From a virus (taxonomy: Duplodnaviria > Heunggongvirae > Uroviricota > Caudoviricetes): a DNA stretch of 5,033 bases. The translations under genes and the position numbers were made by a program. Shown in pieces: positions 1 through 5,033 of the stretch; position 1 is the first letter of the stretch; every line of letters begins with the position of its first letter. The stretch is from IMG/VR virus record IMGVR_UViG_2698536647_000008. One strand, written 5' to 3'. The notes below the pieces were generated by a model. The model saw nothing but the letters and a program-made list of their open reading frames with translations. It was not told where the DNA came from and made no database searches.

Positions 1-432
1 TTAATTAAAGTCAATTCCTGACAAGTCTAATCCGAGTGAGCAGTTCAAAATTTTATCCATTGCATTACTGGATAATACTACCTTTAGCTTTGCAACTTTT
101 GCAGGTGAATCCAAGGTACTATTCTTAGTTATTAGTGTATAAAAATCAGAAACTGGTATACTTTCAATTGTATGATCATACCCTTTATATGCAGCATAAT
201 TGAATACAGTGTCACCATTCATATCGTAAGCATGTGATTCAAGATCAATAAAAAATTTATCAGAACTAGTTATTGCAACTGGCTTACCATCTTTATAGAT
301 TTTAACAGTACCTGCATGGCCCGATGCATTAATATTAACAGTGTACTTTTGCTCACAGGAATATGTTACAGATTTTGCCATAGTAGAAAAAGAAAGCAGC
401 ATAACAATACAAGGTACAAGAACCTTTATCAT
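1..432 (-). CDS. Hypothetical secreted (periplasmic) protein, 143 aa, with N-terminal Sec-type signal peptide
   Basis: Complete ORF: ATG at 432..430, TAA at 3..1. N-terminus MIKVLVPCIVMLLSFSTMA-KS has a hydrophobic core and an AXA-like cleavage motif; no C-terminal TM segment. GGAG sits 7 nt upstream of the ATG (minus-strand reading TAA-ACCTATTGGAGTACTTAC-ATG). Last gene of the minus-strand operon, 18 nt after the holin-like gene. No family recognised from memory. Confidence 0.55.
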   Translation of the reverse strand: MIKVLVPCIVMLLSFSTMAKSVTYSCEQKYTVNINASGHAGTVKIYKDGKPVAITSSDKFFIDLESHAYDMNGDTVFNYAAYKGYDHTIESIPVSDFYTLITKNSTLDSPAKVAKLKVVLSSNAMDKILNCSLGLDLSGIDFN

Positions 433-450
433 GTAAGTACTCCAATAGGT

Positions 451-741
451 TTAGCTCCCACCAATCAAGATTATCAGTACTTTCCATATTTCATCAAGTG
501 GAACAATGGGGAGTACCACACCACATAAGGCCAGTACTGGCACAATGACGTAGTTCCATAGAATGATGAACGTCAGTACCCATCCTAAGCCCTGTCGCCA
601 AGTGAAGCCCTTACGCGTTTCTTCAAGTGTGATCTGGTTCTGTTCATGGCTGTTCTGTGCGTCCAGCTCTTGCTTACTTTGTTCTTTCTTCTGGAAGAAA
701 CCTACTCCAGTTTTGATTAAATCAATTATCATTCCAATCAT
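451..741 (-). CDS. Putative phage holin, 3-TM type (resembles the 'holin of 3 TMs' family, PF11351-like)
   Basis: 96 aa. Hydrophilic N-terminal ~45 aa, then hydrophobic segments. The motifs TWRQGLGWV, LPIVPLDEIW and a C-terminal ILIGG match, from memory, the conserved WRPFxGWV / LPxLxxxEL / LLGLGG pattern of that holin family. ATG at 741..739 overlaps the upstream TGA (740..738) as ATGA. Family assignment is by recall, not by alignment. Confidence 0.6.
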   Translation of the reverse strand: MIGMIIDLIKTGVGFFQKKEQSKQELDAQNSHEQNQITLEETRKGFTWRQGLGWVLTFIILWNYVIVPVLALCGVVLPIVPLDEIWKVLIILIGGS

Positions 742-1049
742 TCAATGATCCCCACGCAATACACCCAAAAGTGTTTTCCCTTAACGAATAGTTTTTTATG
801 TTCGATTACGTACACATCCATCTGGTCACCTTGTAGTGACCATGTAAGTACTGAACCGTCCGTTATATTTTGTTTTTTCTCATAGCAAACATTCATAAAA
901 TGCTCGATATTAATCTGTTTACTCTTTAGTACCTTCTTGAACTTATTACCAAGAAAGCATTTATGAATTGGCATACTATTAGCCTCTGGTGTATTACCAT
1001 CGAGTTTAATCTCACTGGTTAGTTCACCATAATGTTCATCAAAATTCAT
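738..1049 (-). CDS. Hypothetical protein, 103 aa
   Basis: ORF with ATG at 1049..1047 overlapping the stop of the upstream gene (ATGA, 1049..1046), and its own stop overlapping the holin start. Called on coupling and operon context only; no motif recognised. Confidence 0.5.
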   Translation of the reverse strand: MNFDEHYGELTSEIKLDGNTPEANSMPIHKCFLGNKFKKVLKSKQINIEHFMNVCYEKKQNITDGSVLTWSLQGDQMDVYVIEHKKLFVKGKHFWVYCVGIIE

Positions 1050-1606
1050 CTTGTTACCTTGAATGTTCCCTGTATACCACTCATGACTAACATCACACCA
1101 TTATTCACTTCCTGATAGAAATCATAAATTAGTTTACGGCGTTTACTTTCCCGTAGGCCGATTACACGCTTTTGTTTTTTCTTTTGAGTAGTATCTATTA
1201 ATCGTTCTTTTCCGTTTTTACCTTTGACTATCTTGTAACGACCAGAGGCCAAATTTTTCTTTAGTCCACTAATGTTACCCTGCTTCGTTAGTCTTGCTTT
1301 CGAAGTAGGCACAAATTTATCAATGGCCTTTTGTTCAACCAGTACACCATATAAGTACTGTGCCTGAACATCTTTGACCATGATTGTAGCTGTGACCCCA
1401 CTACCCCGTTTTTTATAAAAGAATAGAATTGATCGTTGAGTGAAAGGTACTGCACCTTTGTCTACGGCATTGTTCATATCTGCCTGTACTTTCATAGATA
1501 ATACTCTTGAACGCTTAATAATTTCATCTTGGAACTGTTTACCTAACTTCGTTCCTGTTGTTTTTATATAGTTCGTGACATTATCTATACCCGTTATTCT
1601 TGTCAT
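1046..1606 (-). CDS. Hypothetical basic (Lys/Arg-rich) protein, 186 aa
   Basis: ATG at 1606..1604, 4 nt after the upstream TAA (1613..1611), with GAGGT about 6 nt upstream overlapping that stop. Very basic C-terminal half (KGKNGKERLIDTTQKKKQKRVIGLRESKRRK), which may mean nucleic-acid binding. No family recognised. Confidence 0.55.
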   Translation of the reverse strand: MTRITGIDNVTNYIKTTGTKLGKQFQDEIIKRSRVLSMKVQADMNNAVDKGAVPFTQRSILFFYKKRGSGVTATIMVKDVQAQYLYGVLVEQKAIDKFVPTSKARLTKQGNISGLKKNLASGRYKIVKGKNGKERLIDTTQKKKQKRVIGLRESKRRKLIYDFYQEVNNGVMLVMSGIQGTFKVTR

Positions 1607-1610
1607 ATAT

Positions 1611-2060
1611 TTACCTCACACCCAATAAATCAGTTAAATATTGCAGTACTTTAAATAAATCCAAACGGTTTTTTGGTAATCGTGCCTTACACATTATTGC
1701 CTTATTTAAACAGTCGGGATGTAAACCAAAGTAGCTAATCAATGCTGTTTCTAAAATCGTTGCCTCTGCGTCAGATTTAACACAGTACAAAATCTTTTTA
1801 GTGTATGGCATTCCGGCTTCAATCATTTCATTAACGCACTTACTACTACCGGTATAATCAGGCCAGTTCGATTCAACTGAAGTAGACTTTAAATTCTTTA
1901 TGTCGCGTACTTTTTTATAGATTTGCTTCTTACCGAAATAGTACTCGCCAGTCTCTGGAAACTGAATAATGTAGATAAACGAAACGTAATTCCCATCTGT
2001 TACTTCTGACATATTCCACATATTAATATCGAACATCTCCCATGCTTTATTAACTCTCAC
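1611..2060 (-). CDS. Hypothetical protein, 149 aa; possible degenerate GIY-YIG nuclease-like domain (speculative)
   Basis: First gene of the minus-strand operon. The ORF begins with GTG at 2060..2058, with AGGGA about 8 nt upstream; the first in-frame ATG (2036..2034) has no spacer to a GGGAG. Segment SFIYIIQFPETGEYYFGKK shows an IY...(about 10 aa)...YxFG spacing reminiscent of GIY-(10)-YIG, followed by Arg and Glu at roughly expected distances. The nuclease call is weak. Confidence 0.5.
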   Translation of the reverse strand: MRVNKAWEMFDINMWNMSEVTDGNYVSFIYIIQFPETGEYYFGKKQIYKKVRDIKNLKSTSVESNWPDYTGSSKCVNEMIEAGMPYTKKILYCVKSDAEATILETALISYFGLHPDCLNKAIMCKARLPKNRLDLFKVLQYLTDLLGVR

Positions 2061-2100
2061 AATAAATATCCCTATATAGATTTATTATAGGTATTTATTA
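2061..2100. promoter_or_regulatory. Divergent AT-rich intergenic region between the minus-strand operon and the plus-strand lysozyme gene
   Basis: 40 bp, almost entirely A/T (aataaatatccctatatagatttattataggtatttatta). The minus strand carries a consensus TATAAT (2089..2084) upstream of the GTG at 2060; the plus strand has AATAAATA (2061..2068), one mismatch from the T4 late-promoter box TATAAATA, and AGGT 8 nt before the ATG at 2101. No convincing -35. Low-complexity AT sequence makes chance matches likely. Confidence 0.3.
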
Positions 2101-2550
2101 ATGAGTAAACTAAAAGACAGATTAAAAGAATATGAAGGTACTATCGCTTATCAAACAAAATTGAAGTACTTTCACGATAACAAATTTTGGACATACAAAG
2201 ATTCACTAGAATTTGAAACCATCGGCTACGGTCATTTACTACATGTTGGTGAAAAGTATTCAGATGGTATTACTATTGAGCAAGCGGAAAGCCTACTAGA
2301 CCAAGATATATTAATTGCAGTGCATAACGTCGAAACACTCAATATCTGGCTACCTGACGAGTGGAAAGATTTTCTTGTGATAATGATGTTCCAGTTAGGT
2401 TTAGGCGGGGTACAGAAATTCAAAAAGATGTTAGTAGCCCTTAAAGCAAAAGATTACCCGGAAGCCATCAGACAGGCTAAAGATTCATTATGGTATAAAC
2501 AAACACCTAATCGTGTTGATGCAATGATTGCAGTACTAACCAACAAATAA
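2101..2550 (+). CDS. Phage endolysin, T4-lysozyme-like (glycoside hydrolase family 24 muramidase)
   Basis: 149 aa, ATG 2101, TAA 2548..2550. Recognisable matches to T4 lysozyme: LKEYEG (catalytic Glu region), YKDSLEFETIGYGHLL against YKDTEGYYTIGIGHLL (Asp/Thr catalytic region), MMFQLGLGGVQKF against MVFQMGETGVAGF, and WYKQTPNRVDAMI against WYNQTPNRAKRVI. No N-terminal TM or SAR segment, so it looks like a cytoplasmic, holin-dependent endolysin. Confidence 0.85.
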   Translation: MSKLKDRLKEYEGTIAYQTKLKYFHDNKFWTYKDSLEFETIGYGHLLHVGEKYSDGITIEQAESLLDQDILIAVHNVETLNIWLPDEWKDFLVIMMFQLGLGGVQKFKKMLVALKAKDYPEAIRQAKDSLWYKQTPNRVDAMIAVLTNK

Positions 2551-2553
2551 CAA

Positions 2554-2584
2554 AAAGGCGATAGCATTATGTACTATCGCCTTT
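2554..2584. terminator. Bidirectional rho-independent terminator candidate between convergent genes
   Basis: Perfect 11-bp inverted repeat AAAGGCGATAG (2554..2564) / CTATCGCCTTT (2574..2584) with a 9-nt loop. T-rich on the plus strand downstream (ctttcttcttattgttt) and A-rich upstream (caaaaa, giving a U-tract for the minus-strand transcript). It sits between the lysozyme stop (2550) and the stop of the minus-strand 88-aa gene (2589). Confidence 0.6.
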
Positions 2585-2588
2585 CTTC

Positions 2589-2855
2589 TTATTGTTTCTG
2601 TTCAAGAATGGTAATGATTTTTTCAATTTTCACATCCAGATCATGGATCTGGTTTTCAAGTTTAGTTAAAGCATCACGCATCTTATTCTGATCAGCTTCA
2701 ATACGCACCATACTACTTTCCTGTACTGCTTGTTTAGTTTCCAGTTCTGAAACACGTGTAAGTAGTCCATCAGTATCTTTTGTATTGTCGCGGAATACAG
2801 TGTACAGAAGTACACAGCCAGAAATAATAAGAGCTAATATTGTACCAATGTCCAT
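2589..2855 (-). CDS. Small membrane-anchored coiled-coil protein, 88 aa (i-spanin-like architecture; function unknown)
   Basis: ATG at 2855..2853, TAA at 2591..2589. One N-terminal hydrophobic segment (IGTILALIISGCVLLYTVF), then a charged, heptad-like region (ELETKQAVQESSMVRIEADQNKMRDALTKLENQIHDLDVKIEKII). No lipoprotein partner was found embedded in the one alternative frame I translated by hand. Confidence 0.5.
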   Translation of the reverse strand: MDIGTILALIISGCVLLYTVFRDNTKDTDGLLTRVSELETKQAVQESSMVRIEADQNKMRDALTKLENQIHDLDVKIEKIITILEQKQ

Positions 2856-2895
2856 ATTATCTCGCTTATTATTATTCTTATAATGATATTTATCG

Positions 2896-3552
2896 TTAAT
2901 ATCCGGTGAAAGTAGCTAAAGCGATTTGAAAACCATTGTTGCCCATTGCCTGACGATATGTTTTCTGGTTCTTTGAAACGTACTGCAAGCTGAATGAAGT
3001 ACTGCTATTACGTCGAATAACTATTCCCGAATAACCGATTGTTTCACCATCATCACTTAAGTTGCCCGGACATTGTGACCAACAAAACCAGGGATTAGCA
3101 ACAGGGCTTGTTACTGTGATTGCAGTACTCAAATCCGTAGCAGCAGGTACAGTTAAGAAACCTTGTATACGGGGCATGGTAGCCGCCGATGCAGCAGACC
3201 ATATCAAAGTACCGGAAGCATTGAACACATCGAGATAACCAGACGTAGGTGTTGCAGTGTGCGTACTCGTCATGAATCGCCCTATCCCCGGCTGGAACAA
3301 CTCAGCACCGGGAAAACACCAGCCACCATCTTTCTGTATCTGAAACCAGTACTGCGTAGTGTTCCTGTTCACGATAGTTGCAAGTGGCAAGAAGCCAAGA
3401 GCACCACCATTACCAAAAGCACACGTAAAGCCAGTGTAATACCCCTGATCCGTCAGTGTACCCATTGCCTTAACAGCACCTGTGAGAATTGACTTGTTAG
3501 TACTGTCAATCGTCAGAGCACCCGCAGAATTATAAACTTCAAAACCTGACAT
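2896..3552 (-). CDS. Hypothetical tail-fibre-associated protein, about 218 aa
   Basis: The tracked ORF (2896..3597) begins with TTG and would overlap the upstream gene by 44 nt. I prefer the ATG at 3552..3550, which lies 1 nt after the upstream TAA (3556..3554; minus strand reads TAATATG) and gives MSGFEVYNSAGALTID... Its N-terminus resembles that of the preceding 98-aa ORF, with a further internal copy (DVFNASGTLIW). Located directly downstream of the tail-fibre gene. Confidence 0.5.
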   Translation of the reverse strand: MSGFEVYNSAGALTIDSTNKSILTGAVKAMGTLTDQGYYTGFTCAFGNGGALGFLPLATIVNRNTTQYWFQIQKDGGWCFPGAELFQPGIGRFMTSTHTATPTSGYLDVFNASGTLIWSAASAATMPRIQGFLTVPAATDLSTAITVTSPVANPWFCWSQCPGNLSDDGETIGYSGIVIRRNSSTSFSLQYVSKNQKTYRQAMGNNGFQIALATFTGY

Positions 3553-3895: not shown

Positions 3896-4783
<888 letters not shown>

Positions 4784-4802
4784 TCAGTCAGAGGTGACTC
4801 AC

Positions 4803-5033
4803 ATGACAAAAACAGTATCAACCAGTAAAAAACCCCGTAAACAGCATTCGCCTGAATTTCGCAGTGAAGCCCTGAAGCTTGCTGAACGCATCGGTGTTAC
4901 TGCCGCAGCCCGTGAACTCAGCCTGTATGAATCACAGCTCTACAACTGGCGCAGTAAACAGCAAAATCAGCAGACGTCTTCTGAACGTGAACTGGAGATG
5001 TCTACCGAGATTGCACGTCTCAAACGCCAGCTG
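4803..5033 (+). CDS. insE: IS3 transposase OrfA (InsE), N-terminal 77 codons; truncated by the window edge
   Basis: ATG at 4803 preceded by GAGGTGA with a 5-nt spacer. Translation MTKTVSTSKKPRKQHSPEFRSEALKLAERIGVTAAARELSLYESQLYNWRSKQQNQQTSSERELEMSTEIARLKRQL matches the E. coli IS3 OrfA N-terminus as I recall it, including the helix-turn-helix region. No stop before the window ends. Confidence 0.93.
   Translation, partial: MTKTVSTSKKPRKQHSPEFRSEALKLAERIGVTAAARELSLYESQLYNWRSKQQNQQTSSERELEMSTEIARLKRQL

Follow-up and report, generated by a model that had tools for sequence, protein, structure and literature searches.

Bacillus subtilis PBSX needs a membrane protein, XhlA, alongside its holin XhlB and its endolysin XlyA (PMC5589764, PMC6834076). 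Phage Mu gp25, known as releasin, is the prototype of the DUF2730 proteins, which are membrane-tethered and cytoplasmic (Chamblee et al., 2022, PMC9239132). The partner of Mu releasin is a SAR endolysin, while some DUF2730 proteins are paired with non-SAR endolysins, and their role where the endolysin has no SAR domain is a question left by Chamblee et al. (PMC9239132). Among isolated phages, DUF2730 proteins have been reported from transposable phages only (PMC9239132). In the i-spanins, periplasmic Cys residues for intermolecular disulfides have been proposed to be near-universal, and the periplasmic domains of spanins, taken together, may span as few as 62 residues, so that length alone does not exclude an i-spanin (PMC6139136).

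The window analyzed here, a stretch of 5,033 nucleotides from IMG/VR record IMGVR_UViG_2698536647_000008 (Caudoviricetes), represents a decaying, site-specifically integrated siphophage prophage of Escherichia coli. Two strains carry the prophage at a shared site, mipA-yeaG, and it has a serine recombinase and a gpA-type terminase. Within the window lies an ATG-started open reading frame of 88 codons, with the coordinates and length in the ORF list that an earlier sequence-only reading had claimed for it. The gene and the parts of its product are as follows.

2589..2855, minus strand: gene for a membrane-anchored coiled-coil protein (ORF list; homologue clusters; 409 public contigs)
2793..2849, minus strand: single transmembrane helix, codons 3-21 (hydropathy, flank charges, family alignments)
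2775..2792, minus strand: conserved juxtamembrane motif RDNTKD, codons 22-27 (family alignment)
2598..2768, minus strand: unbroken heptad coiled coil, codons 30-86 (heptad analysis, AlphaFold2, family alignment)

This is a real, conserved coding gene that counts among the core late genes of a siphophage prophage lineage integrating site-specifically in Enterobacteriaceae. The identical 88-residue protein was found on 409 public contigs, and its homologues form 79 close and about 45 distant clusters, with 109 distinct full-length homologues of 79-97 aa that share the conserved motifs. Public entries name the family members either "hypothetical protein" or by coiled-coil mis-annotations. A search of 50,697 isolated phage genomes by nucleotide comparison and tblastn, with the window, the protein, and two distant homologues as queries, gave nothing useful, and the family is known from prophages and metagenomes only. 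The most distant subgroup had no match in IMG/VR or JGI metagenome contigs; the loci of distant relatives were obtained through exact protein look-up.

The N-terminal transmembrane helix and charged coiled coil described by the sequence-only reading are borne out by hydropathy, heptad analysis, and structure prediction. The hydrophobic core (residues 3-21) has a mean Kyte-Doolittle value of 2.34 and carries a small-xxx-small pair, A8 and S12, that is conserved in the family alignments. Before it stand only codons 1-2, Met-Asp, an acidic flank without Lys or Arg, and after it R22 and D27 are each found in at least 90% of the family. That reading had also proposed topology and coiled-coil prediction as checks; the latter places residues 30-86 in one heptad register, with Leu, Ile, Val, or Met at 81% of the a and d positions vs. 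15% elsewhere. The coiled coil ends in a conserved K-I-E-K/R-I-(I/L)-T-I-L-E motif, residues 22-88 are net acidic (11 Lys/Arg vs. 14 Asp/Glu), and hydropathy finds no C-terminal hydrophobic segment. Pro occurs in only 16 of the 109 homologues, and AlphaFold2, given a 36-sequence alignment, models a single continuous helix over residues 3-87 (mean pLDDT 90.9). A Foldseek search of this model against BFVD returned 0 matches; a lone long helix holds no fold information. A lipobox-like stretch, ISGC at residues 11-14, is a detail that the sequence-only reading overlooked. It lies inside the transmembrane helix and has no basic n-region, and its Cys is not kept, being Leu, Ser, Ile, or Asp in homologues, so it is not a lipoprotein signal. 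A u-spanin resembling T1 gp11 was rejected on the same variable Cys and missing n-region, together with the lack of a C-terminal transmembrane helix.

The charges around the helix bear on which way the protein faces. Lys and Arg are absent before the transmembrane helix in 107 of the 109 distinct homologues and Asp or Glu stands there in 88, while all 109 have at least two Lys or Arg within 15 residues after the helix. The N-terminal flank of Mu gp25 is likewise acidic and free of Lys and Arg; the Vibrio and Pseudomonas DUF2730 proteins have acidic residues before the helix, but also one Lys or Arg. An acidic flank without Lys or Arg predicts an N-out/C-in topology, in which the coiled coil would be cytoplasmic. 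This is opposite to the N-in/C-out topology that an i-spanin needs, and eight sampled i-spanins (three judged by eye) all have Lys or Arg, and no acidic residue, before the helix.

The resemblance to i-spanins that the sequence-only reading had pointed out is not sustained, failing on partner, flank charge, helix layout, and Cys content. Rz-type i-spanins and the 88-residue protein do have in common an N-terminal transmembrane helix followed by a coiled coil, a small size, and a late gene near that of the endolysin, and a juxtamembrane "RDN" is found in lambda-type Rz too. The Rz-like family phrog_739 is matched by 10 of 36 members (best E 3.8e-6), with weak matches to phrog_89, phrog_7686, and phrog_214 as well, and the module of this lineage is without any recognizable spanin, the window and 58 related loci having been scanned for lipobox ORFs. 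It could therefore be supposed that the protein is a minimal i-spanin with a periplasmic coiled coil, whose outer-membrane partner is missing, unrecognizable, or host-encoded. However, the Rz type has an o-spanin partner, a basic N-terminal flank, a CC1-linker-CC2 arrangement (lambda Rz being the prototype), and periplasmic Cys. The soluble domain of the 88-residue protein is one unbroken helix with neither a linker nor a second coiled-coil segment, Cys occurs in that domain in only 5 of 109 members and not in the window protein, and the family HMM scores about 10 bits lower on i-spanins than on DUF2730 proteins. A helix of 57-66 residues would measure about 8.5-10 nm, probably too short to cross the periplasm without a partner.

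The observation that no lipoprotein partner is visible held up on wider search. An all-frame scan of the window found no lipobox ORF embedded in, overlapping, or adjoining the gene; a further minus-strand ORF that the gene encloses (2666..2815, 49 aa, starting with GTG) is without a lipobox. The same scan over -4.5 to +3.2 kb in 58 related loci revealed no conserved lipobox ORF, only 9 sporadic ones in 7 loci at no conserved position. The sole window ORF with both a lipobox and a basic n-region, a 43-aa frame at 1440..1571 on the plus strand, was rejected since it lies antisense inside a conserved gene and no lipobox ORF recurs at that position in the 58 loci. On this evidence, a minimal i-spanin is very improbable.

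The genes around the 88-residue protein gene describe its setting more fully.

2101..2550, plus strand: GH24 (T4-type) lysozyme gene, the convergent neighbor (Pfam PF00959, E=1.9e-10; PHROG endolysin and tail-lysozyme families)
1611-2060, minus strand: SegE-like GIY-YIG gene, in all related loci
1046-1606, minus strand: gene for a 186-aa protein, in all related loci
738-1049, minus strand: gene for a 103-aa protein, detected in only about half of the related loci
451..741, minus strand: gene for a 96-aa probable holin, distantly GTA_holin_3TM-like (Pfam PF11351, block position)

In about 60 related prophage loci, the block runs from the tail tip gene through the genes for the 88-residue protein, the lysozyme, the SegE-like protein, a protein of about 190-200 aa, and, in some, one of about 105 aa to that of a protein with three transmembrane segments. 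In all of these loci the lysozyme gene immediately adjoins the 88-residue protein gene. The latter directly follows the J-like tail tip gene or the two ORFs accessory to it, and in the relatives found the endolysin gene is always at most one gene away. Distant relatives (24-32% identity) carry a co-directional lysozyme gene that begins about 65-70 bp downstream. The N-terminus of the lysozyme, MSKLKDRLKEYEGTIAYQTKLKYF, is hydrophilic, as in homologues, and there is no SAR domain; lacking an N-terminal hydrophobic segment, the enzyme is taken to be a soluble endolysin. In the 96-aa protein, two hydrophobic helices stand out clearly at the C-terminal end, and the N-terminus has a short hydrophobic stretch. 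PF11351 ranks first or is the sole Pfam match in 5 of 5 diverse homologues of it, at 16.5-21 bits against a cut-off of 24.8, and its gene closes the block in related loci, making it the probable holin of the module. A role in lysis is favored because the 88-residue protein gene never lies more than one gene from the endolysin gene, which in distant relatives is directly downstream and co-directional. Of the three alternatives that the sequence-only reading had offered (a minimal spanin component, a lysis regulator, or an unrelated membrane protein), endolysin adjacency thus favors the second, whereas the predicted topology and the lack of a partner count against the first.

Transcription signals place the gene at the end of one unit rather than at the start of another.

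2552..2586, both strands: hairpin terminator between the convergent stop codons (terminator scan)
2885..2893, minus strand: ATAAATATC, putative promoter element 30 nt upstream of the start codon (pattern search)
2062..2098, both strands: two further, divergent ATAAATAYC motifs (pattern search)

As the sequence-only reading had it, the gene is the last before a bidirectional terminator: the hairpin at 2552-2586 has 15 pairs and a T-rich tail on both strands and is common to the 88-residue protein gene and the lysozyme gene. The three co-directional relatives examined likewise have an equivalent hairpin behind the 88-residue protein gene. Since the hairpin parts this gene from the lysozyme gene, the former closes the tail operon and opens no lysis operon, a point against a role in lysis. 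The ATAAATAYC pattern has 3 matches in the window vs. 0.23 expected, the other two lying before the lysozyme gene (2062-2070, plus strand) and before the SegE-like gene (2090-2098, minus strand). Most related loci have an (A/T)TAAATA box upstream of the 88-residue protein gene, and a minority of them have the 9-mer in the same lysozyme/SegE-like intergenic region.

The slot directly before the endolysin gene is the usual position of holin-class genes, and it is the one occupied by the 88-residue protein gene in co-directional relatives. The protein could accordingly be the holin itself, of a class III-like type with one transmembrane domain, or an antiholin, leaving the 96-aa protein as a partner or with another role. 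An 88-residue protein with one transmembrane domain and a highly charged C-terminal domain, encoded next to an endolysin gene, fits such a description, though these criteria are permissive and insufficient. The conserved small-xxx-small face of the helix would suit oligomerization, the UniRef entry of one homologue is named "Holin," and the PHROG holin family phrog_1296 is matched by 2 of 36 members (E 2.2e-5). About 10 loci have an in-frame ATG four codons upstream that would add an N-terminal Arg (MR[YQ]xM) in the manner of a dual start; this ATG overlaps the Shine-Dalgarno sequence, is absent from the window, and is not conserved, and its position within the Shine-Dalgarno sequence led to its being set aside as incidental. 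No significant match to curated holin families was found, the hairpin sets the endolysin gene apart, and the block contains a better candidate in the GTA_holin_3TM-like protein. Identity as a holin or antiholin is therefore rather unlikely.

A late or prophage-expressed function outside lysis, such as superinfection exclusion, a block to DNA entry, or a factor linked to the tail tip, has the position of the gene in its favor, as it is the last of the tail operon, after the tail tip gene or its two accessory ORFs, and is flanked by an AT-rich promoter-like box and a terminator in a moron-like layout. Moreover, because the family was found in just one phage lineage with fixed synteny, co-occurrence cannot tell a part in lysis from one in the tail or in another late process. 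The divergence of the gene tracks that of the 233-aa gene upstream (rho 0.54) no less than that of the lysozyme gene (0.55), with lower values for the holin-like gene (0.23) and a rho of 0.80 for the 103-aa gene that comes from a biased subset; these pairwise correlations are confounded by linkage and phylogeny, give no clear signal, and are left out of the argument. However, the gene is a core gene with a fixed place in all of the approximately 60 loci, unlike typical morons, and the ATAAATAYC box also stands before the lysozyme and SegE-like genes. The predicted periplasmic exposure of about two residues would be poor for blocking an incoming phage at the envelope, and no similarity to known exclusion proteins was seen. 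A role outside lysis is thus also rather unlikely.

Among described lysis proteins, XhlA offers a parallel in setting. It too is a membrane-anchored coiled-coil protein of about 89 aa, its gene opens the lysis block directly behind the tail genes, and it is needed alongside the multi-TM holin XhlB and the soluble XlyA endolysin. The membrane anchor of XhlA is C-terminal, whereas that of the 88-residue protein is N-terminal, and the XhlA host is Gram-positive. The Pfam XhlA family (PF10779) is matched by 19 of 36 members, at best with 29.2 bits against a cut-off of 34.7, and the matches cover the coiled coil only (profile positions 1-48 of 67). The 88-residue family is not a member of XhlA, and the resemblance is functional and architectural.

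The best sequence similarity, weak and sub-threshold, is to DUF2730, where it stands above 8 sampled i-spanin sequences and shuffled decoys. In common with the 88-residue family, Mu gp25 and its relatives have about 90-100 aa, an N-terminal Met-Asp/Glu passing at once into a transmembrane helix, one or more basic residues at the membrane-cytoplasm junction, a predicted N-out/C-in topology, and a net-acidic, helical C-terminal domain with a leucine-rich (I/L)L(T/L)(I/L)LE-type end. They are encoded, as here, by a late gene a few genes from the endolysin gene, and their profiles show weak collinear similarity to the family. Aligned against the DUF2730 alignment, the family alignment gives an hhalign probability of 69-76% (E about 2-5e-5), and phrog_736, the PHROG that contains Mu gp25 and the Vibrio and Pseudomonas DUF2730 proteins, is matched collinearly over the full length by 10 of 36 members (best E 1.8e-7). 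The Pfam DUF2730 model (PF10805) is matched at E<1 by 9 of 36 members, the best of which, P0117, spans profile positions 9-89 of 102 with 23.8 bits, below the gathering score of 24.9; at E<0.1 the window protein goes unmatched, and a newer model, PF10805.15, is flagged for many close homologues in precomputed data. The family HMM gives 15-18 bits on 17 DUF2730 proteins, a median of 5.3 on i-spanins, and at most 4.8 on coil-shuffled decoys. Discrimination comes from these profile-level tests only, as single-sequence hhalign (8% for Mu gp25, 0.3-31% for i-spanins) does not discriminate.

The DUF2730 matches are all sub-threshold and stand amid many generic coiled-coil matches. Pfam scans with 22 and 36 members brought up dozens of unrelated coiled-coil families, among which single weak matches to Nsp1_C, CLZ, SlyX, and FlaC were disregarded, and an NCBIfam scan gave sub-threshold coiled-coil noise only. 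The most frequent PHROG match is phrog_1009 (17 of 36 members, best E 3.3e-7, nearly full length), which is also the best match of the window protein (E 0.0013); it is without annotation and adds no functional information. Since PHROG spanin profiles score almost as high as those of DUF2730, membership in DUF2730 is not established.

Several features also set the two families apart. The junction is RR or RK in DUF2730 (PMC9239132) vs. a single Arg followed by Asp in the 88-residue family, and the three DUF2730 sequences inspected (from Mu, Vibrio, and Pseudomonas) have a central loop with Pro that is absent from the unbroken helix of this family. Among isolated phages, DUF2730 proteins are reported from transposable ones, with the gene downstream of the endolysin gene, whereas the present gene belongs to a site-specifically integrating, non-transposable siphophage and is upstream of the endolysin gene or convergent with it. 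In place of the SAR endolysin that is the partner of Mu releasin, the module has a soluble endolysin and a holin candidate, and because this endolysin has no SAR domain, the literal Mu mechanism of SAR-endolysin release cannot apply. It is doubtful, but conceivable, that the family is a genuine and highly diverged DUF2730/releasin branch in non-transposable siphophages whose endolysin is soluble and whose holin is a canonical multi-TM one. In that case, DUF2730-type proteins would originally have served not SAR-endolysin release but a more general step at the inner membrane, for example one in which holin lesions are nucleated or triggered from the cytoplasmic face, and Mu "releasin" would be a special case.

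The preferred reading, held tentatively and at somewhat below an even chance, is that the 88-residue protein is a cytoplasm-facing, membrane-tethered lysis accessory that works with a holin and a soluble endolysin, like XhlA or releasin. It would be a bitopic inner-membrane protein with a two-residue N-terminus facing the periplasm and, in the cytoplasm, a net-acidic, single-helix coiled coil of about 65 residues that is probably homo-oligomeric. The lysis block would then consist of this protein, the soluble GH24 endolysin, and the 3-TM holin-like protein. Acting at the inner membrane, the 88-residue protein may aid or time holin-dependent release of the endolysin, in parallel with XhlA and its holin XhlB in Bacillus PBSX and with the DUF2730 releasin gp25 and the Mu endolysin. 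Unlike a spanin, it would not bridge the periplasm. The architecture, conservation, synteny, lack of a lipoprotein partner, charge asymmetry, and weak DUF2730 similarity were observed, while the topology, oligomerization, and any lysis role proposed here are predictions from sequence and gene context.

A transmembrane helix plus a coiled coil next to a lysozyme should not be equated with an i-spanin unless partner and topology have been checked. A widespread lineage of enterobacterial prophages has an unannotated, releasin-like protein fixed beside a soluble endolysin and a holin-like gene, which bears on the question of Chamblee et al. regarding what DUF2730 proteins do with non-SAR endolysins. 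E. coli, Enterobacter, or Cronobacter would offer a genetically tractable system in which to ask whether lysis control at the inner membrane generally has a third component in the form of cytoplasmic coiled coils tethered to the membrane.

The gene under study closes the tail operon transcriptionally. It and the hairpin that follows it are placed as follows:

2589-2855, (-) strand: ORF with an ATG start, 88 aa, MDIGTILALIISGCVLLYTVFRDNTKDTDGLLTRVSELETKQAVQESSMVRIEADQNKMRDALTKLENQIHDLDVKIEKIITILEQKQ
2552-2586: hairpin of 15 pairs between the stop codon of this gene and that of the convergent lysozyme gene (2101-2550)

In the encoded protein, residues 3-21 form a hydrophobic core of 19 residues, and a single heptad register spans residues 30-86, with Leu, Ile, Val, or Met at 81% of the a/d positions versus 15% elsewhere. 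In the AlphaFold2 model, built from a 36-sequence alignment, a single unbroken helix covers residues 3-87 (mean pLDDT 90.9). The sequence-only reading had described a transmembrane (TM) helix followed by a coiled coil, encoded by the last gene of the tail transcription unit and ending at a terminator, and each of these points holds.

A word-indexed search returned 79 close homologues (58-97% identity), all of 85-96 aa, from Escherichia, Enterobacter, Cronobacter, Klebsiella, Lelliottia, and Phytobacter, and a profile search run exhaustively over 1.84 billion representative proteins added only ~45 full-length clusters of 79-97 aa. The common plan begins with Met-Asp/Gly/Glu and a TM helix in which residues 8 and 12 are small, continues through a juxtamembrane R-D-(K/N/R)-x-x-D into an uninterrupted coiled coil, and ends in K-I/V-E-R/K-I-L-T-I-L-E. 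The family is unannotated: its members are labelled "hypothetical protein", in one case "Holin", or else EnvC, CwlO-like, and PspA, which are obvious coiled-coil mis-annotations.

The window is a decaying E. coli prophage. Its J-like tail tip gene is cut near 4720-4740 by an IS3 element (~4720-5033; transposase OrfA N-terminus MTKTVSTSKKPRKQHSPEF...), and since only a C-terminal remnant of this gene is left, the 285-aa ORF at 3896-4753, the prophage is defective. Related copies occupy the interval between mipA and yeaG of two complete E. coli genomes and carry a serine recombinase at their far end, and an intact relative in E. coli ESBLEC_MG48 encodes small and gpA-type large terminases, portal, capsid, and tape measure proteins, DUF2163, DUF6950, and a tail tip protein of 1,178 aa, followed by the module with the gene under study. 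From these copies, the recombinase, and this gene set it follows that the element is a siphophage that integrates site-specifically and is not a transposable phage of the Mu type. Among 50,697 genomes of isolated phages, none matched at the DNA or protein level. One of the two complete genomes, E. coli AREA_C483 (locus L001), is the sole complete genome with a 99.9% identical copy; there, ISSen4 (IS3 family; 22589-23959) truncates the gene at about window position 2809, leaving a 40-aa remnant annotated by PGAP. The variable prophage end carries a 143-aa protein with a signal-peptide-like N-terminus in the window (1-432, (-) strand; MIKVLVPCIVMLLSFSTMAKS) and unrelated cargo in other loci, including a true lipoprotein in one (L014).

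Gene order was compared across ~60 related loci, drawn from IMG/VR contigs, assemblies, and genomes. It is fixed, running from the tail tip gene through two optional ORFs (~98 aa and ~220-233 aa) to the coiled-coil gene and the lysozyme gene, then to a SegE-like GIY-YIG gene, a gene for 186-202 aa, one for 103-114 aa (found in about half of the loci and elsewhere absent or too diverged for detection), and one for a 92-100-aa protein with hydrophobic helices, before the prophage end. The lysozyme gene is inverted and convergent with the coiled-coil gene in the window and most relatives (~60 loci; L002-L062) and co-directional in three distant relatives (24-32% identity; L069, L072, L074), in which it starts ~65-70 bp past the coiled-coil gene, again with a hairpin terminator between the two. 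Because both orientations keep them adjacent, the coiled-coil gene always sits directly next to the endolysin gene among related loci. Within the lineage the switch affects the lysozyme gene alone; the hairpin and a ATAAATAC box before the next transcription unit are retained in both orientations, and the flip resembles the inversion of one gene between short inverted promoter boxes. The SegE-like protein (1611-2060, (-) strand, 149 aa; PF19835, E 4e-15) has no obvious DNA-binding extension and, unlike a mobile homing endonuclease, holds a fixed position in all ~60 loci, and a C-terminal stretch of the 186-202-aa protein (KKKQKR...SKRRK) is very basic.

The 9-mer ATAAATAYC, which may be the late promoter element of the phage, occurs exactly three times in the window versus 0.23 expected (at least three copies in 0 of 200 shuffles):

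2062-2070, (+) strand: ATAAATAYC ~30 nt upstream of the lysozyme start codon
2090-2098, (-) strand: ATAAATAYC ~30 nt upstream of the SegE-like start codon
2885-2893, (-) strand: ATAAATAYC ~30 nt upstream of the coiled-coil gene start codon

Among related loci, the box is found between the lysozyme and SegE-like genes in a minority, a looser (A/T)TAAATA precedes the coiled-coil gene in most, and in some a copy of the ATAAATAYC type also lies 5-6 kb upstream, in the tail genes. The moron-like layout of promoter, gene, and terminator, together with the position at the tail operon end, lends some support to the reading that the product could be a late membrane protein outside lysis, acting for example in exclusion.

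The sequence-only reading had likened the protein to an i-spanin with no visible lipoprotein partner. The missing partner is confirmed: no ORF with a lipobox was found within the gene or next to it, and none is conserved between 4.5 kb upstream and 3.2 kb downstream of it in 58 related loci, seven of which contain nine sporadic candidates, none at a conserved position. The protein's own ISGC (residues 11-14) was rejected as a lipobox, as it lies within the TM helix without a basic n-region and its Cys is Leu, Ser, Ile, or Asp in homologues. A 43-codon GTG-start ORF (1440-1571, (+) strand; MKGTAPLSTALFISAC...) with a textbook lipobox and basic n-region is antisense within the 186-aa gene; no lipobox ORF recurs at the equivalent position in the 58 loci scanned, and it is probably a chance ORF. 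Nor was a two-component or unimolecular spanin candidate found in the conserved block (window 1-2900; loci L004-L075).

The likeness itself fares less well. Lys/Arg is absent before the TM helix in 107 of 109 distinct homologues (the other two look like over-extended start calls) and Asp/Glu present there in 88, whereas all eight sampled i-spanins (seven from SpaninDB Table S1, PMC6139136, plus Mu gp23; helix boundary set by eye for three) have Lys/Arg and no acidic residue at this position. An acidic Met-Asp/Glu N-terminus is also found in Mu gp25 and two other DUF2730 proteins. At least two Lys/Arg follow within 15 residues of the helix in all 109 homologues. The flanking charges predict an N-out/C-in topology, opposite to that of a class II i-spanin; this stays a prediction, since i-spanins too carry Lys/Arg after the helix. 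The soluble domain is a single helix without a linker, in contrast to the two linker-joined coiled-coil segments of Rz (PMC6139136), and contains Cys in just five of 109 members. The small size noted earlier is correct but not decisive by itself, given that combined spanin periplasmic domains reach down to 62 residues (PMC6139136). With no partner, the opposite predicted topology, no linker, and rare Cys, an orphan i-spanin is considered the least likely identity.

Neither Pfam nor NCBIfam gave a significant match for the window protein, and single weak matches mean little because family members match many unrelated coiled-coil models. The Pfam, PHROG, and profile lines nevertheless point weakly but consistently to DUF2730 (PF10805), to which the Mu releasin gp25 belongs. 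Precomputed PF10805 flags are found on many close homologues, and nine of 36 members scanned match it (best 23.8 bits, cut-off 24.9), the best match being collinear across the whole length, TM helix included. Ten of the 36 match phrog_736 (best E 1.8e-7), verified to contain Mu gp25 and Vibrio and Pseudomonas DUF2730 proteins, and hhalign gives 69-76% probability for family versus DUF2730. Reciprocally, the family HMM gives each of the 17 DUF2730 sequences 15-18 bits, versus a median of 5.3 bits for i-spanins and at most 4.8 bits for decoys with the TM helix preserved and the coil shuffled. A closer resemblance to DUF2730 than to the sampled i-spanins is thus weakly supported. However, DUF2730 membership is not established, because the Rz-like spanin family phrog_739 is matched by equally many members (10/36; best E 3.8e-6), the commonest PHROG match is phrog_1009, a family without assigned function, and the family lacks the Pro-containing central loop present in the three examined DUF2730 proteins.

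In the window as in relatives, the N-terminus of the neighbouring lysozyme is hydrophilic, indicating a soluble endolysin in need of a holin. The best candidate, and the probable holin gene of the element, is the last gene (451-741, (-) strand), whose 96-aa product combines a short hydrophobic N-terminus, a charged segment of ~30 residues, and two C-terminal TM helices; GTA_holin_3TM (PF11351) was the top or only Pfam match in all five diverse homologues tested, with scores of 16.5-21 bits that fall below the cut-off of 24.8. Other features recall gene transfer agents (GTAs) alongside this top or only match of the holin-like protein: a DUF2163 tail protein beside DUF6950 in a related locus (L008, 24263-24907 and neighbours) and the weak best NCBIfam match of the window lysozyme, the Bartonella GTA endolysin BgtA.

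It is proposed that the coiled-coil protein is an inner-membrane lysis accessory, since two precedents fit its predicted topology and its context. DUF2730 proteins are membrane-tethered and cytoplasmic, and Mu gp25 is required for endolysin release, and other DUF2730 types pair with non-SAR endolysins (PMC9239132). The small membrane protein XhlA, whose gene in PBSX directly follows the tail genes, is required along with the endolysin XlyA and the holin XhlB (PMC5589764, PMC6834076). The coiled-coil protein is made late, from a gene fixed beside that of a soluble endolysin in a block ending in a holin-like gene. Probably almost none of it is exposed to the periplasm and its net-acidic coiled coil, ~10 nm long, lies on the cytoplasmic side, and with the 3-TM holin it may permit or time endolysin release, all functional steps being inferred. 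The literal Mu mechanism cannot apply, as the endolysin has no SAR domain to release. Alternatively, the protein could itself be a holin or antiholin. Ten loci (L032, L035, L041-L043, L049, L050, L055, L057, L061) have an in-frame ATG four codons upstream, giving MR(Y/Q)xM-D/E... with an extra N-terminal Arg, comparable to holin/antiholin dual starts, but the window lacks this ATG, which overlaps the Shine-Dalgarno sequence where it does occur. Comparative genomics cannot separate the lysis accessory from its rivals because the family occurs in only one phage lineage, and with rigid synteny.

The family is best described as a membrane-tethered coiled-coil lysis accessory of the releasin/XhlA kind, present in a non-transposable siphophage with a soluble endolysin. 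As such, it bears on what DUF2730-type proteins do without a SAR endolysin, and its lineage on how the outer membrane is breached without a recognisable spanin.
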